A stretch of 11,760 nt of DNA from a virus, in UHGV virus genome UHGV-1590541. One strand, given 5' to 3'. Position 1 is the first letter of the stretch; the number at the start of each line of letters is the position of its first letter. The position numbers and the translations under genes were made by a program. The notes under the pieces were generated by a model. That model ran no database searches and had not been told where the DNA came from. It saw only the letters and a program-made list of their open reading frames with translations. Positions 1 through 6,520 of this stretch are shown one piece after another.

Positions 1-516
1 GATTCTAACTTATCTTTGGCAGTCATTTTTACTGTTGTAGCGGGCGCAGGTAAGTCTTGCTGCTGTGGATTTTCTGTTAGTTGTTTACGAGAAGAAACAT
101 CGCCCCTGTTAGTTTGCTTCATGTTGATTACAGATGCGTTATGGGCATTATCAGCAGCAATTGACTGAAGTTTTACAAAAGTTTTTGAATCTGTTTTAGC
201 CAGAAGTAACCTATTTCCCGTAAACATTGCCTTAAAAGTGATAGTTTTTTTCGTCTTGTCCGCCGCACCAAGCAAACCTCCAATGACCAACCCTGCACCA
301 CCAAAGATTAATCCACCAAGCAAACCTGCGCCTGCCGCCTTACCTATACGGCTTTCCTCTTCACTATCCGCAAGTTCAATCGATAAAAGCTCTTCTTTCA
401 GATTTAATACAATATTTTCAGGAAAGCCTTGTTTTGGTTTTTTGGCAACCGAACCCCATGCTTGCCCACCCTTTAGGAAAACTTCCTGCGATAACCTGAA
501 TCCCTGCCATGTTCAT
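1..516 (-). CDS. Glycine-zipper membrane protein, partial (runs off window start), apparently frameshifted at an A6 tract
   Basis: ATG at 516 with strong SD (AAGGTGA, 5-6 nt upstream) opens a 32-codon frame (MNMAGIQVIAGSFPKGWASMGFGCQKTKTRLS) that stops at 418-420. The +1 frame is open from 512 through position 1 and encodes a GxxxG-rich segment (IGKAAGAGLLGGLIFGGAGLVIGGLLGAA) with no plausible start of its own. The frames meet at the homopolymer at 438-443. The plus-strand ORF 238-531 is its antisense shadow. Confidence 0.45.
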
Positions 517-600: not shown

Positions 601-1587
601 CTATTTAAGAATAAAACGGTATTTACTGTCAGGAGTGCTTTGCTGATCAAGTAGCAGTGAACGACATGGAGCAGTCAAAACCCGAGCATAACTACCATCA
701 GGGCTTATGTTAATGTAACAAACCTTGCCCTTAACACTATAATTTTCGGGGACGGATGCCTTTGCTGATACAGTAAATTTAAGGGTATGCCAGCCCGTTT
801 TTTGCTTGTAGCTTGAAACCGAATGGAAATCATCTGAGTACTTATTTAACCCTGGAAACATGCTGCGCAGTGCGGGGATGGAATCTTCTATTATTTTATC
901 GTTGGTTTTAATGTTAAAAACGCTGGTTTCAGTAGAAGCTACTGCTTTGGCATTTCCCCATTTACCAGCGAACACAATCATTCCCACGAAAAATATTGCT
1001 ACAAGAACTAACACTCCCCCCAACACTACTACATGAGGCTTCCGGCTTCTGGTTGGTACAGTTGCGACTGATTTTGCACCGCTTTCCGATGGAGGTGATA
1101 GAGTTTTACTCTCATCACGAATATTCAGCAGATCATCAAAATAACCAAACACAGCCTGCAACTGCTCTTTGTCTAGGCCTTTAAGATGGGTTGTACCGAA
1201 ATGCTTCAGACAGTATCTGTCACGGTCAAGACGATACCCAGGGTCAGTAAGCGCCATTATTTTGCTGACCAGAAGATTACAGTCCTTCATATTCTGGATC
1301 TGTTGTGCATATCTCTGAAGGATCTCAACCGCACCATGATAATCAGCCGCAGTCATTTCATTAACTGTTTTGGTATTAAGTTTCGTGTGGATCGTCATCC
1401 ATAGCTCGCGCTTACTTTCCCCCAGATCAACCAATTCATCCATCAATCTGTGTAAATCGCGTTTTTGCAGCAACGAAATTGGTTGCTGGGCCGAAGGAAG
1501 TATGTCAGCAGAATAGTTATGAATGGTAACATCACCGCTGACAACGTTACCCACATCCCCGTTAACTGTTTGCTTCTCTTTACTCAT
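601..1587 (-). CDS. Single-pass membrane protein of unknown function (328 aa), co-transcribed with the prophage repressor
   Basis: ATG at 1587 overlaps the repressor stop (ATGA, 1584-1587). One predicted TM helix at about aa 185-207 (VVVLGGVLVLVAIFFVGMIVFAG) preceded by basic RSRKPH, implying N-in topology. The C-terminal domain of about 120 aa carries two Cys. No family recognised by eye. Lower GC than the phage core. Confidence 0.8.
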   Translation of the reverse strand: MSKEKQTVNGDVGNVVSGDVTIHNYSADILPSAQQPISLLQKRDLHRLMDELVDLGESKRELWMTIHTKLNTKTVNEMTAADYHGAVEILQRYAQQIQNMKDCNLLVSKIMALTDPGYRLDRDRYCLKHFGTTHLKGLDKEQLQAVFGYFDDLLNIRDESKTLSPPSESGAKSVATVPTRSRKPHVVVLGGVLVLVAIFFVGMIVFAGKWGNAKAVASTETSVFNIKTNDKIIEDSIPALRSMFPGLNKYSDDFHSVSSYKQKTGWHTLKFTVSAKASVPENYSVKGKVCYINISPDGSYARVLTAPCRSLLLDQQSTPDSKYRFILK

Positions 1588-2009
1588 CTTCTCTTGGTAT
1601 TTTTGTTCATTATTCCACCTGTTCCTATGGTTACGTTACCTTTGATAACATTCCCCAGAACATCTCCATGAATAACCTGTTCCGCCCGTTCTCTGGAGGA
1701 GCCAGTAGTCAAGGCCGACAAAACTGAACCTTTGACCTGTAATGGTGCCTGCCGGTAGTGCTGCAGTAACTCCATTTCATCACGTGATAAAGTTATACCT
1801 GATGACTCCCCGGTAAGAATGAACTGTACATTGGCCCCAATTCTTGCAAAGGCTGCAAGTAACTCACCTCCGGGAACAGCAACCCCTCGTTCATATTTCC
1901 CCCACATTTCTCTTGAAACGCCACAAAGGGCTGCTACTTCAGCCTGCTTGAGTGATAACCGCGAACGCTCAGCTTTGAACCGCGACGCGCAAAGAGAATC
2001 AAAATTCAC
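1584..2009 (-). CDS. Prophage repressor, XRE/cI-type helix-turn-helix (start probably GTG at 2009; longest ORF reaches ATG 2045)
   Basis: HTH segment LSLKQAEVAALCGVSREMWGKYERG, typical of XRE-family repressors. Divergent from the Ner-like gene. GTG at 2009 has a GAGG SD 5 nt upstream, whereas ATG 2045 has none and would leave only 50 bp for divergent promoters. C-terminal tail has a GDV/GNV repeat. Confidence 0.8.
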   Translation of the reverse strand: MNFDSLCASRFKAERSRLSLKQAEVAALCGVSREMWGKYERGVAVPGGELLAAFARIGANVQFILTGESSGITLSRDEMELLQHYRQAPLQVKGSVLSALTTGSSRERAEQVIHGDVLGNVIKGNVTIGTGGIMNKNTKRR

Positions 2010-2095
2010 ATAAACCTCATTGACAATGAGAACAATAGTTCTCATAATCTATCACATATAAAACAAACATCATTGCATCAACAAAGGAGACAACA
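2010..2095. promoter_or_regulatory. Divergent immunity control region: candidate operators plus rightward sigma70 early promoter
   Basis: Perfect palindrome CTCATTG-A-CAATGAG (2016-2030) overlapping a second dyad GAGAAC-AATA-GTTCTC (2028-2043). TTGACA (2020-2025), 17-bp spacer, CATAAT (2043-2048) facing the Ner-like gene. CACATAT motif at 2053-2059. Confidence 0.5.
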
Positions 2096-2655: not shown

Positions 2656-3570
2656 ATGGGACGCACCAAATCACCCGTTAACACTGAACTGAATGTTGAG
2701 GTTCCGCTGTCAGATAACATCAATGTCAATTTGAACGCTATGACACAGCATCGCATGGAAATTATGCAGCAGTTTGGTGATGGACTGCCTTATGAACGTG
2801 ATCGCATTGTTCACGAAGCACGTTTTTATATGGCGCAGAGTGCTGAATCTATGCTGGAAGCGGGTAAGCGGCTGATCATCTTAAAAGAAAATGAGCCACA
2901 CGGTGATTTTACAAACATTTTAGAAAATGAACTCGGACTTGCACCACAAGTTGCTCGCCGCATGATGCAAGCCAGTATGAAGTTTTTGGGAGAAGGTGAT
3001 GAGCCAACAAAACGCTCAACGTTGAGCGTTTTGGGGAAAGCCAAACTGTACGACCTGATGGTTCTGGATAATGAAGAACTTGATGAATTGGCCGACGGCG
3101 GCACAGTTGCCGGCCTGACGCTTGACGACGTTGATCGCATGTCAGTACGTGAATTGCGTCAGGCCCTGCGCGAAGCGCGCGAAACCAACGCAGCACAACA
3201 GCGCGTACTCGCCGACAAAAATGAAAAAATAGATTCACTCTCCACCAGACTGGAGAAGAAATCCCGTATTCAGCCGCCTGAGCCTGATGAGGAGGTTAAG
3301 AAGCTGCGGGCGGAAGTAACAGCATTAGCGGTTGAGGCGGAATCTGCTATCGCCGTCCGACTGTCCAGCGCTTTTGAGACGCTGTGCGCATATTGTGCTG
3401 AAAACATGATTGATACCCCCAGAGACTTCATGGCAGGCCTGGTCTGTCAACTGGAAAGCACAGCGCGTAGCCTGCGCTCCACATTTGACCTGCCGGACGA
3501 GCCAACAGGCAATGCAGCGCCTTCATGGCTGACTGAGCCGACGCCACAGATTAACGGGCTGGAGGCATAA
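2656..3570 (+). CDS. Hypothetical early protein (304 aa), acidic with predicted coiled-coil segments
   Basis: AAGGAG RBS. Stop at 3570 lies 3 nt before the transposase start. No domain recognised with confidence (possibly a DUF3102-like phage protein, from memory only). Confidence 0.8.
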   Translation: MGRTKSPVNTELNVEVPLSDNINVNLNAMTQHRMEIMQQFGDGLPYERDRIVHEARFYMAQSAESMLEAGKRLIILKENEPHGDFTNILENELGLAPQVARRMMQASMKFLGEGDEPTKRSTLSVLGKAKLYDLMVLDNEELDELADGGTVAGLTLDDVDRMSVRELRQALREARETNAAQQRVLADKNEKIDSLSTRLEKKSRIQPPEPDEEVKKLRAEVTALAVEAESAIAVRLSSAFETLCAYCAENMIDTPRDFMAGLVCQLESTARSLRSTFDLPDEPTGNAAPSWLTEPTPQINGLEA

Positions 3571-3573
3571 CCA

Positions 3574-5343
3574 ATGAATGCTGCCCTGACTGAACGACTG
3601 GTTTATGTCGCCCGCGCGGCACGTGACGCGGGGCATGGTAAACGCGGTGCAATATACGACGCTGCCTGTGCTGAACTTGGCATGTCCCGCGCCACTCTGC
3701 TGCGCAGGCTGAAGGAGGTCTCTGTGACTGATAAACGCAAAAAACGCGCCGATGCCGGGCGCAGCGCCCTGACCCGCGACGAAGCCGCGCTGATATCTGC
3801 CACACTGCGTGAGGCCACCCGCAAGAACGGTAAGCGTCTCTATTCCATCGCAGATGCAGTGGAAACCCTGCGGGCTAACGGCTTTATCACCGCAGGCAGA
3901 ACAGATGAAACCACCAGTGAGTTTTTCCCGTTGTCTGAAGATGCCATCAGCCGTGCTCTGCGTAACTATGGCCTGCCCCCGGAACAACTGGATGCCCCTG
4001 CACCACATACCGAAGTGGCCAGTCTGCATCCCAATCATGTCTGGCAGATTGACGCCTCACTCTGCACGCTTTACTACCTGAGCAATGGACATAAAGGGCT
4101 GCAGGTGATGGACAGCGCGAAGTTCTACAAGAACAAGCCCGCTAACCTTGCCCGTATCGCCAGTGACCGCGTGTGGAGTTACGAGATTACCGACCATGCC
4201 AGCGGCTGGATTTACGTTGAGTATGTGACGGGCGCGGAATCAGGTGAGAACCTGTGTTCTGTGCTTATCAACGCCATGCAGGAGCGTGGCGGCGCAGACG
4301 TGCTGCACGGCGTGCCGAAAATACTCTATCTCGACCCCGGCTCGGCAAACACCGCGGGTATGACGAAAAACATGTGCCGCTCACTGGGCATCGACCTGAT
4401 AGCGCACAAGCCGCATAACGCCCGCGCCACCGGACAGGTGGAAAAGGCGCGTGACATTATCGAACGCAAGCTGGAGCCGGGTCTGAAGTTCCGGCCGGTT
4501 CACGGTCTGGAAGAACTCAACGCGCTGGCCGCGAAATGGCGCAGCCACTTTAACGCCACGGCTGTTCACAGCCGCCACGGTAAAACCCGCACGGATATCT
4601 GGCTGAAGATTACTGCTGAGCAGCTGAAAAAAGCGCCTTCCGTTGAGGTATGTCGTGAACTGGCTGTGGCGGCACCAGAACTCCGCAAAGTCACGCCAAA
4701 ACTTCGTGTCTCGTTCCGGGGCACTGAATTTGACGTATCAACGGTACCGGGCGTACTGGTTGGTGAAAAACTGATGATTACCCGTAACCCATGGCGCAGC
4801 GATGTGGCACAGGTGGTTCTGACCGGTGAGGACGGCCACGAGACGTTCTTCCTGGTCGAAGAGGTCAGAAAGAACGAGTTTGGCTTTGCTGAAGGCGCGG
4901 CGGTATTTGGCGAAAGTTACAAAGCCCTGCCGGAAACCCCGGCACAGATGGCGGCAAAAGAAACCGAAGCGCTGGTTACCGGTACAGACAACGCCGCAGA
5001 TGCAGCCGCCGCACGCAAGGCGAAGGCGCTGCCGTTCGGCGGGCGGCTTGACCCGTATAAACATATCGACGACACCACACTTCCGGCCTATATGCCGAAG
5101 CGTGGTCAGGCCTCTGACGTACGCGGGCCGCGCACTGAACAACGTCCCATGACTCATGTGGAGGCCGCGAAAGCCCTGCGCGATAAGTTCAGCGCCGACG
5201 GCCTTACCTGGACGCCGGAACATTACCGCCAGTTAACGGCACAGTACCCGGACGGCGTACCGGAAGCCGCACTGGATGAAGTCATGGCCACGCTGACCAC
5301 ACCGGCCCGCAGCAGTGTTATCAGCATTGTTAACGGCAACTGA
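3574..5343 (+). CDS. DDE transposase (retroviral-integrase/rve-like catalytic core), functional analogue of Mu A (589 aa)
   Basis: GGAGG RBS. N-terminal HTH-like region, then candidate catalytic residues in HVWQIDASL, KILYLDPGSANTA and GQVEKARDIIERKLE, matching D..D..E spacing of rve-type transposases. Followed directly by an AAA+ ATPase, as in transposable phages. Confidence 0.9.
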   Translation: MNAALTERLVYVARAARDAGHGKRGAIYDAACAELGMSRATLLRRLKEVSVTDKRKKRADAGRSALTRDEAALISATLREATRKNGKRLYSIADAVETLRANGFITAGRTDETTSEFFPLSEDAISRALRNYGLPPEQLDAPAPHTEVASLHPNHVWQIDASLCTLYYLSNGHKGLQVMDSAKFYKNKPANLARIASDRVWSYEITDHASGWIYVEYVTGAESGENLCSVLINAMQERGGADVLHGVPKILYLDPGSANTAGMTKNMCRSLGIDLIAHKPHNARATGQVEKARDIIERKLEPGLKFRPVHGLEELNALAAKWRSHFNATAVHSRHGKTRTDIWLKITAEQLKKAPSVEVCRELAVAAPELRKVTPKLRVSFRGTEFDVSTVPGVLVGEKLMITRNPWRSDVAQVVLTGEDGHETFFLVEEVRKNEFGFAEGAAVFGESYKALPETPAQMAAKETEALVTGTDNAADAAAARKAKALPFGGRLDPYKHIDDTTLPAYMPKRGQASDVRGPRTEQRPMTHVEAAKALRDKFSADGLTWTPEHYRQLTAQYPDGVPEAALDEVMATLTTPARSSVISIVNGN

Positions 5344-5353
5344 GGAGGGAAAC

Positions 5354-6520
5354 ATGCTGGTACTGAAGCAGCAACTGAAAGAGGCCCGTATTCCACAGGC
5401 GGTGGTGGCGAGAGCTGTCGATGTTTCTGAGGCCACGCTGGCCCAGATTGTGAATCATAACGCGTGGCCCCGCACCAGCCCCGGAGAAGTGCGCCGGCGT
5501 CTTGCGTCCTGGCTGGAAAGTCAGGGGATTGATACAACGAAGAGTTTTGATGCTGTACAGGGCGCGGCCACGCCCCGTACAGCGGGTACCACAGATAAAA
5601 CGAGCCTCAGTGAGGAAGAGAATATGTTACTCAAAAAACAGGTGTTATTTCCAGCAACCAAAAAAGCGTTTGGTCTTTTCCGTGACCCGTTCGCCGACGA
5701 AGCCATGCAGGGTTCTGATGATGTGTTCACCACCCCGGACATTCGCTACGTGCGTGAGGCGCTGTACCAGACAGCCCGTCATGGTGGGTTTATGGCCGTC
5801 ATCGGTGAGTCCGGTGCGGGTAAATCCACGCTGCGCCGCGACCTGACTGAACGTATCAACCGCGAGAATGCGCCGGTAATTGTTATCGAGCCATACATCA
5901 TCGCTATGGAAGACAACGATGTGAAAGGGAAAACCCTGAAGGCAGCAGCTATTGCCGAAGCCATTATCAGTACCATCGCACCACTGGAAAGCATCAGACG
6001 CAGTCAGGACGCCCGTTTTCGCCAGTTGCATCGCGTCCTGAAAGACAGCAGCCAGGCGGGGTTCAGCCACGTTCTGGTGATTGAGGAGGCCCACAGTCTG
6101 CCCATTCCGACACTGAAACACCTCAAACGCTTTTTTGAGCTGGAGTCCGGTTTCAAAAAACTGCTGTCCATCGTGCTGATTGGCCAGCCGGAACTGGCGA
6201 CAAAACTGTCTGAACGCAATATGGAAGTCCGTGAAGTCGTTCAGCGCTGTGAGGTGGTCGAACTTCTGCCTCTGGACAATAACCTTGAAGAATTTCTGAC
6301 GTTCAAACTGCAACGGGCCGGTAAACAGCTGACGGACATTATGGACGCCGGTGCAGTGGATGCCATACGTGCCCGCCTGAGCAATCCGGGAAGTCACCGT
6401 AAAAATATGGTCAGCCTGCTGTATCCGCTGGCCGTCAGTAACCTGGTAATAGCCGCCATGAATCTGGCCGCTGAAATCGGGGTTCCACAGGTCAACGCTG
6501 ACGTTGTCAAAGGGGTTTAA
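5354..6520 (+). CDS. AAA+ ATPase transposition helper protein (MuB / TniB-like), N-terminal HTH (longest ORF starts at 5315)
   Basis: Walker A GESGAGKST and Walker B-like VLVIEEAH. GAGGAGGG RBS immediately upstream of ATG 5354, 11 nt after the transposase stop. Confidence 0.9.
   Translation: MLVLKQQLKEARIPQAVVARAVDVSEATLAQIVNHNAWPRTSPGEVRRRLASWLESQGIDTTKSFDAVQGAATPRTAGTTDKTSLSEEENMLLKKQVLFPATKKAFGLFRDPFADEAMQGSDDVFTTPDIRYVREALYQTARHGGFMAVIGESGAGKSTLRRDLTERINRENAPVIVIEPYIIAMEDNDVKGKTLKAAAIAEAIISTIAPLESIRRSQDARFRQLHRVLKDSSQAGFSHVLVIEEAHSLPIPTLKHLKRFFELESGFKKLLSIVLIGQPELATKLSERNMEVREVVQRCEVVELLPLDNNLEEFLTFKLQRAGKQLTDIMDAGAVDAIRARLSNPGSHRKNMVSLLYPLAVSNLVIAAMNLAAEIGVPQVNADVVKGV

Follow-up and report, generated by a model that had tools for sequence, protein, structure and literature searches.

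Introduction

Amyloid signalling motifs in bacteria were found by the same criterion that is used here, namely motifs that match within pairs, fall into unrelated classes, are kept by purifying selection and belong to closely linked genes, and the Bab/Agp pair (BASS11), which lies in an E. coli prophage island, is an amyloid signalling pair with experimental validation. In Salmonella and E. coli, Flk inhibits the flagellar export switch; it is anchored by its C-terminus and faces the cytoplasm (PMC13344023). Here, we analysed the virus genome UHGV-1590541 (11,760 nucleotides, one strand, 5' to 3'; "the window" refers to this whole stretch of DNA), which represents the early region of an E. coli prophage of the transposable (Mu-like) kind, and describe two adjacent genes in it, one for a repressor-like XRE-type helix-turn-helix (HTH) protein (the repressor) and the next for a membrane-anchored protein with a Flk_N-like domain (the partner). 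The C-terminus of the repressor resembles the N-terminus of the partner, and the two termini co-vary across many prophages. Judging from the sequences, this cognate, homotypic motif pair probably joins the repressor to its membrane-anchored Flk_N partner and, in the reading we favour, would control repressor activity and induction.

A motif shared by the repressor tail and the partner N-terminus

In the best local alignment of the two proteins, repressor residues 120-140 (RAEQVIHGDVLGNVIKGNVTI) pair with partner residues 3-22 (KEKQTVNGDV-GNVVSGDVTI) with a score of 55, compared with 20.2 ± 4.0 (maximum 43) in 5000 composition-preserving shuffles. When the window was searched in six frames with the repressor tail, the partner N-terminus was the top match (score 54), and the next match scored 33. 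The triplet G[DN]V occurs at repressor residues 127, 131 and 136 and at partner residues 10, 13 and 18, so that all six occurrences in the window (16 predicted proteins, 3044 residues) fall in these two segments. The preliminary description of this DNA had placed a shared motif at the repressor C-terminus and partner N-terminus, and the peptides it quoted are indeed present. The span it gave (1538-1652) does carry the motif and holds only the inner halves of the two matched segments, of which the partner segment extends over 1522-1581, with a conserved block to residue 25 (window position 1513), and the repressor segment is listed in Table 1. Its gene labels also hold: the repressor-like XRE/HTH_31 gene diverges from a strong early promoter that contains a palindrome, and the product of the downstream gene is a membrane protein with a single pass.

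The likeness is far less evident in the DNA. In register, 36/60 nt are identical, the same codon is used at 4/11 identical residues of the window pair, and the repeat finder gave no direct repeat that links the regions coding for the motifs. Hence, the similarity is a protein-level feature, and the imperfect direct repeat of about 40 bp that had also been described is weak. The repeat finder did report a 21-nt inverted repeat (1516-1536 / 1629-1649, 81% complementary), which arises because GGTAACGTTACC (GGT-AAC-GTT-ACC, G-N-V-T) is a DNA palindrome. The mRNA at the gene junction has no significant fold (z = -1.1).

In both proteins, conservation is highest in the motif. In a set of 11 repressors that share this type of tail (type A), mean column identity is 0.92 for the tail motif and 0.70 for the HTH domain. 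Hence, DNA-binding specificity drifts while the tail is held fixed. For the partner, a large protein database yielded 24 relatives, among them 18 full-length ones of 44-82% identity; the N-terminal block KQTVNGDVGNVVSGDVTIHNY is near-invariant in these 18, and mean column identity is 0.94 for the N-terminal motif, 0.81 for the Flk_N domain, 0.69 for the periplasmic domain and 0.39 for the linker.

Co-variation of the two termini across prophages

Loci were fetched by a conserved word of the repressor HTH only (24 genomes and 75 viral contigs), and each repressor's last 40 residues were compared with residues 1-60 of the product of the following open reading frame (ORF) on the same strand. This gave 65 non-redundant loci from Mu-like and P2-like prophages of gamma- and betaproteobacteria. 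The summed score of cognate pairs was 2162, compared with 1355 ± 58 when partners were permuted (z = 13.9, 0/20000 permutations), and 25 cognate pairs scored at least 39, compared with 19 (median) and 32 (95th percentile) for non-cognate pairs. The excess is found within classes too, both in the AGRD-type class and in the remaining classes (0/20000 permutations, p<5e-5).

At least four motif classes were found, with each tail matching its own partner. In Dickeya, the tail reads QVFHGNVSGQFAGNQIVN and the partner N-terminus QEFNGTASGQFSARDIIN; in Erwinia, they read SGSGQRVAGRDYHE and SGEKNRSAGRDFTE. Further pairs, in the same order, are NIDGQVSAENIYNI and TVGQVAANNIYNI (locus L057), GHRFALGDYHE and EHRIALGDYYE (L063), GGVQVGYVGGSV and GGVQVGKVDGDV (L081), and HGGQFSTGTINNY and HGGQFGQVINNY (L083), and at L058 the tail and the partner N-terminus both contain GNRVAGRDFNENK. 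In an independent sample, collected through the partner family, 2/3 loci had an upstream HTH repressor with a matching tail, namely L105 (QQFNGPVGSVTSGDIVN and QQFHGRIDQVAAGDIRN, with an ATGA overlap) and L106, a P2-like prophage (VHGDVGQTVKGNVTIEGG and IHGDVGIVAEGDVIQN). Between the motif and the repressor C-terminus there is a median of 3 residues (13 in the window pair), the median distance between the partner start and its motif is 4 residues, and the matched genes are adjacent or overlapping, with the same -3 overlap or short gaps (median ~5 nt). In composition, the motifs have 15% G, 12% N and 10% V and only 0.5% P.

Over the 25 pairs, 109 of the 255 identical residues share their codon, compared with 107 expected from codon usage. 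Hence, the match is kept by selection on the proteins and not by duplication or gene conversion; a recent event of either kind is ruled out by this codon test, in which synonymous codons match at the chance level. A local duplication across the gene junction, which the preliminary description had considered, is therefore not supported as a recent or neutral event, also because conservation in both proteins is greatest at the motif. That the likeness is due to chance, or to a neutral duplication without function, has a negligible likelihood: the motif is short and of low complexity, and the palindrome in GGTAACGTTACC yields repeat-like DNA, but the shuffles, the permutations, the conservation and the codons all reject this explanation. 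The motif is thus neither at chance frequency nor absent from the homologues of either protein, in both of which it is conserved.

Because the motifs match within pairs across unrelated classes, are under purifying selection and belong to tightly linked genes, we conclude that they form a cognate pair. The earlier idea of a shared interaction tag that links the state of the repressor to the downstream protein is strongly supported by this co-variation, and it is quite likely, from the pattern of matching, that the two motifs bind each other directly.

Another explanation is that both motifs are read by a third party, for example a protease, chaperone or adaptor of the host; the two proteins would then be degraded or handled jointly, or would compete for it, without touching each other. 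The C-terminal tail of the Mu repressor governs degradation by ClpXP, the tails described here end in a basic cluster, and both segments are exposed and disordered, which would all suit such a reader. Against it, there are at least four unrelated classes, each matching within its pair, and E. coli prophages alone bear at least two of them (the window compared with P0050/P0051), which one host factor cannot explain; a phage-encoded third factor that co-varies with the pair would be less parsimonious, and no conserved third gene was seen at the inspected loci. Hence, a third-party reader is highly improbable. The shared degradation tag that had been proposed is disfavoured on the same grounds, since a tag read by the host should be constant for each host.

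Several observations weigh against a direct partnership of repressor and membrane protein. Co-variation is a sign of functional coupling of the motifs and not proof of physical contact, and co-expression of repressor and partner in the lysogen is awkward for a simple anti-repressor unless the interaction is conditional. A few repressors, at L021/L103 and L019, are tail-bearing without a matching neighbour. At the former, as at L022 (all Burkholderiaceae Mu-like prophages), the tail reads IDGTVHGHVVQGDVVQHG, the adjoining gene encodes a DUF4236 protein and nothing at the locus matches the tail. In the Lonsdalea and Pseudomonas putida group (L006-L010, L015, L016, L018 and L020), the repressor has a helical C-terminal domain and no G-rich tail, and the G-rich motif of the downstream protein is internal, behind an N-terminal helix (ITISVGGDNPGSIHVGSVVNIN; IKIKGDYGNINLGTQ). 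This arrangement looks like a different way of coupling both proteins; given these tail-less repressors, the motif may serve mainly for self-association of the partner. In addition, fold searches gave no informative match for either partner domain.

The same loci bear on the explanation that each motif serves only to form oligomers of its own protein and that the likeness reflects exchange of a module between neighbouring genes. Partners with the motif next to repressors without it (Lonsdalea, P. putida) would be expected in this case, and Peptidase_S24, which some relatives have instead of the tail, is also a dimerisation domain. Exchange should leave identity in the DNA, and the shared codons are at the expected number (109 observed, 107 expected); moreover, matching within pairs across classes would have no selective reason if the proteins never meet. 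We therefore regard parallel self-association as very improbable, and continue to favour pairing between repressor and partner.

Some loci differ in the number or carrier of the motifs. In the P2-like prophage of Erwinia pyrifoliae (L003, 3501-5596), three tandem ORFs have near-identical tails (INVSGSGQRVAGRDYHEG.K) and precede a single Flk_N partner that begins TSGEKNRSAGRDFTE; two of them (131 and 128 residues) are HTH repressor-like and the third (112 residues, 3501-3839) is known from its tail alone. In Pseudomonas sp. (L012), one tail-bearing repressor is followed by two proteins with N-terminal motifs of the same class (3929-4519 and 5232-5624), a Flk_N-like protein with FHGGVGQVAEGDINNYG and a protein with a hydrophobic stretch with FNGDVGQVSGGDIHNYG. 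At L096 (3528-4129), the repressor is without a tail, and a separate, small, adaptor-like protein of 71 residues carries the C-terminal motif (VFYGPISQVAGRDIVNH), with the next protein beginning MSMQNFFGPVGQVAGRDI.

The repressor, its membrane partner and the locus

The features of the locus are listed in Table 1. A perfect palindrome, ATGAGAAC-AATA-GTTCTCAT (2026-2045), lies inside the near-consensus rightward early promoter; it is probably the operator of the XRE repressor, and its position fits the XRE protein as prophage repressor. The annotated ATG start of the repressor, at 2045, falls within this palindrome. Since homologues begin (M/V)NFDSL and the palindrome spans the annotated ATG, the true start is probably the GTG at 2006, which would give a protein of 140 residues beginning VNFDSL.

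Table 1. Features of the repressor-partner locus, in window coordinates
Feature	Position	Strand	Basis
Repressor-like XRE/HTH gene, 153 residues (longest ORF); first leftward gene from the divergent control region	1584-2045	-	Pfam HTH_31 E=4.7e-7; PHROG transcriptional regulator/repressor families
Repressor C-terminal motif, residues 120-140, RAEQVIHGDVLGNVIKGNVTI	1626-1688	-	Alignment to partner N-terminus
Gly-rich turn and basic repressor end, GTGGIMNKNTKRR	1587-1625	-	Column identity 0.97 among type-A repressors
ATGA overlap of repressor stop and partner start	1584-1587	-	Read from sequence
Partner gene, 328 residues; second leftward gene	601-1587	-	
Partner N-terminal motif, residues 3-25, KEKQTVNGDVGNVVSGDVTIHNY	1513-1581	-	Near-invariant in homologues
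Flk_N-like helical cytoplasmic domain, residues 31-158	1114-1497	-	AF2 pLDDT ~90; PF27202; NCBIfam Flk
Partner transmembrane helix, residues 188-207	967-1026	-	AF2 helix over hydrophobic stretch VVVLGGVLVLVAIFFVGMIVFAG
Predicted periplasmic alpha/beta domain, residues 221-328	604-927	-	AF2 pLDDT >90; invariant C290, C308
Early promoter TTGACA-17-CATAAT, near-consensus, of the rightward operon	2020-2048	+	Read from sequence
Rightward genes: Ner-like HTH, IclR-like HTH, DUF3102, rve-type transposase, AAA+ B-like protein, Gam			

The AlphaFold2 (AF2) model of the repressor (108 sequences) has the HTH domain at residues 17-78 and a helical hairpin at residues 88-114, followed by a tail of 39 residues (115-153) that has no regular structure (predicted local distance difference test, pLDDT, 46-69). 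In most tail-bearing homologues, the motif is followed by a Lys/Arg-rich C-terminus. The members of the repressor family share the HTH domain and the hairpin (DE..LL..YR.AP...K.A.L.AL) and vary at the C-terminus, where the tail types are GDVLGNVIKGNVTIG, Q.FHG.VSGQF.GN.I.N, VSG.GNRVAGRDY.E, VGQ...G..N..G..FNV and GGVQVG..GG.V. The Pfam scan of the window repressor returned the HTH only, with no Peptidase_S24 domain; some distant relatives with the same HTH bear Peptidase_S24 in place of the tail (P0092, P0093 and P0102). The HTH domain also has weak matches to the HipB, MqsA and PezA models and to the RstR family.

The partner is a single-pass membrane protein in its AF2 model (18 sequences). 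It begins MSKEKQTVNGDVGNVVSGDVTI, and residues 1-30 are disordered in the monomer (pLDDT ~42). Its Flk_N-like domain was recognised by the NCBIfam Flk model PRK10715 (E=2.9e-12), and PF27202 (Flk_N) is precomputed on the identical cluster P0001, on partner homologues and on partners in other prophages. The partner is not Flk itself, as only residues 19-147 align, with 46.6 bits compared with an equivalog cut-off of 353. Basic residues lie before the transmembrane (TM) helix and Flk faces the cytoplasm as a tail-anchored protein; hence, the partner N-terminus, and the motif with it, should be cytoplasmic.

Elsewhere, the periplasmic domain (conserved block LLP.IR...PGLDKY) is a separate ORF after the Flk_N gene (L043, 4091-5053, where it begins with a lipoprotein-like signal, and L052, 3838-4281), and proteins that consist of this domain alone also exist (P0132, P0136 and others). 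Because of this separate encoding in other prophages, the E. coli partner gene looks like a fusion. A conserved protein of 88-90 residues (MEH.Y..E.RP.FD...) is encoded directly upstream of the Flk_N gene at L104 (2232-2504) and L106 (2095-2361); at L104, the two genes overlap by ATGA and there is no adjacent HTH gene.

A profile search of 1.84 billion representatives returned 114 relatives of the partner family, and nearly all of the Flk_N type start with a G-rich class motif, after which come L..AQR..L..LV and, at the C-terminus, an anchor. The G-rich N-terminal motif is absent from chromosomal Flk-like proteins. Across the prophage loci, most partners are membrane-anchored proteins with a Flk_N domain. 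The other matched partners are Zn-ribbon proteins of ~120 residues with a TM helix (L011, L044 and L051) and short helical proteins with a TM helix (L063 and L078). Hence, the common denominator of the partners is a cytoplasmic N-terminal motif on a membrane-anchored protein.

The reverse direction of control is a serious rival, in which the tail restrains a membrane effector as in a toxin-antitoxin (TA) pair or in Rex-like exclusion. In a TA-like or abortive-infection system, the effector would assemble with itself through its N-terminal motif and damage or alter the membrane, and the repressor tail would cap it until the repressor falls, on induction or when an infecting phage shuts it off. 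The gene order agrees with this, as an HTH protein whose C-terminal tail is disordered and an overlapping next gene (here by ATGA) are typical of a type II TA operon, and the spot downstream of an immunity repressor houses exclusion genes, e.g. rexAB of lambda. The diversity of the partners (Flk_N with a TM anchor, Zn-ribbon with TM, short helical with TM) and the label of PHROG 6521 ("moron ... membrane protein") point the same way, and known amyloid signalling pairs end in a death effector that targets the membrane. However, searches of Pfam, NCBIfam and PADLOC gave no match to a family of toxins or of defence proteins, so the pair is not a recognised TA or defence system, and Flk, the sole characterised relative, is a non-toxic regulatory tether. 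In addition, the prophage is a complete transposable one that has the HTH protein at its operator and early promoter, and hence this protein is a phage repressor and not a dedicated antitoxin. The validated amyloid pairs also have the opposite arrangement, with the C-terminal motif on the membrane effector. Overall, we consider a TA-like role unlikely, and control of the repressor by its partner remains the reading we favour.

The repressor and partner genes form one operon, probably with translational coupling. The module is common. The chromosomes of IAI39, CE10 and many further E. coli strains match bases 500-2300 at 100% identity, and the 1.8-kb repressor-partner region is found at ≥80% coverage in 127/5426 complete E. 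coli genomes, where RefSeq names the repressor "helix-turn-helix domain-containing protein" and the partner "hypothetical protein". Searching isolated phages by tblastn gave partial, distant matches only. After the partner gene comes one for a predicted membrane protein of 193 residues (WP_000907412.1 in IAI39; window 1-510, minus strand), which has no G-rich N-terminal motif; in the window, it has a frameshift after ~codon 21 relative to IAI39, i.e. a pseudogene or a sequencing error. In the Mu-like prophages L001, L002 and L103, the repressor-partner operon points at lysis genes (holin and SLT) and then late genes, and, unlike in Mu, it is not at the prophage end.

Discussion

We favour control of the repressor by its partner because the tail and partner together take the place of the S24 domain in the repressor family, and because they occur in Mu-like and P2-like prophages. 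In the mechanism we propose, each motif would be a Gly/Asn/Val-rich segment of about 20 residues that is unstructured alone and pairs with the other as beta-strands, in a stack that may be amyloid-like or a beta-solenoid and may include several copies of the partner. On the inner side of the membrane, the partner would thereby hold or sequester the repressor or cause it to aggregate, and tail and partner would be a module that controls repressor activity, and with it induction, in Mu-like and P2-like prophages that are without SOS-cleavable repressors. If the motifs do bind, we lean slightly towards the partner acting on the repressor rather than the reverse.

The beta-forming character of the motifs, which the preliminary description had noted, is plausible from their sequence. 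Templating of the amyloid type by the motifs is a more tentative proposal, with the balance somewhat against it; the G/N/V-rich and P-poor composition, the disorder of the modelled monomers and the basic flank are compatible with it, and the flank may act as a gatekeeper. A further, speculative version, which we consider rather improbable, is that the Flk_N protein is a sensor that nucleates a cross-beta fold, which spreads to the repressor tail and leaves the repressor as an inactive aggregate; induction would then be all-or-none and independent of SOS, and host Flk would be a domesticated form that has lost the motif.

Among the classic "non-SOS" prophages are those of the Mu-like and P2-like kinds, and the natural inactivation of their repressors is poorly understood. 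If the proposed control is true, it offers a concrete route for this inactivation, and it would extend the principle of amyloid signalling by paired terminal motifs, so far one of effectors of immune cell death, to a transcription factor. It would also be the first functional context for the Flk_N family, and thus a lead on the flagellar regulator Flk, and the several motif classes, being distinct from one another, could find use as orthogonal interaction tags. We found no description of motif pairing between a repressor and a partner in the searchable literature, whose coverage is incomplete, so that an earlier description is possible.

Comparison with known systems

Membrane trapping of regulators is known from RseA-sigmaE and PtsG-Mlc, and the phage antirepressor RstC aggregates RstR, which is a precedent for inactivating a repressor by aggregation. 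As in these systems, the partner has a layout (cytoplasmic N-terminal region, single TM helix, periplasmic domain) by which a DNA-binding regulator could be kept at the membrane; unlike the present pair, none of them has matched terminal motifs, and there is no relationship in sequence or fold. The C-terminal region of Mu Repc governs inactivation of that repressor. The repressor described here has the same position and role in the prophage as Mu Repc and the S24 repressors of the CI/LexA type; however, it is of neither type, as it has an XRE HTH rather than the winged-helix domain of Mu and is without an S24 domain.

With type II TA systems that have an HTH antitoxin (HigA, HipB and MqsA), the pair shares the HTH domain, the disordered C-terminal tail and the overlap with the next gene. 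It differs from them in that the downstream protein belongs to no toxin family and that the proposed contact is motif to motif, not tail to globular toxin. Compared with Flk (Fluke/RflH), the partner has a homologous N-terminal helical domain and, likewise, a single membrane anchor and a predicted orientation towards the cytoplasm, and Flk is itself an inhibitory tether of the inner membrane; chromosomal Flk has neither the G-rich N-terminal motif nor a paired repressor, and the partner has an extra periplasmic domain.

The closest likeness is to BASS1-10 (Bell/NLR), BASS11 (Bab/Agp) and fungal HET-S/NWD2, in which a motif of ~20 residues is likewise found at the C-terminal end of one protein and at the N-terminal end of the protein encoded by the next gene. 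As in BASS, the motifs match within pairs, fall into several classes, are rich in G/N/Q/V and poor in P, and are unstructured in the monomer, and Bab/Agp also lies in prophage DNA. The carriers are different. The C-terminal motif is on an HTH repressor and not on a Bell or HeLo-type pore-former, the N-terminal motif is on a Flk_N membrane-anchored protein without an NTPase and not on an NLR/TPR sensor, and the membrane protein bears the N-terminal rather than the C-terminal motif, with a basic cluster following the motif of the repressor. Searches of Pfam, NCBIfam and PADLOC recognised HTH_31/HTH_3 in the repressor and a Flk-like region in the partner and no NB-ARC, NACHT, TPR or Bell domain in either protein, and neither matched a prion or amyloid-motif family in a scan of all Pfam-A (E<=0.1). 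The papers on BASS and Bab/Agp make no mention of HTH proteins or repressors. Since it has neither an NLR nor a Bell carrier, the pair is not filed as a member of BASS or FASS; instead, we rate repressor and partner as a new variant of the BASS-type layout, known here from sequence, that puts the two matched motifs on a phage repressor and on its membrane-anchored neighbour.

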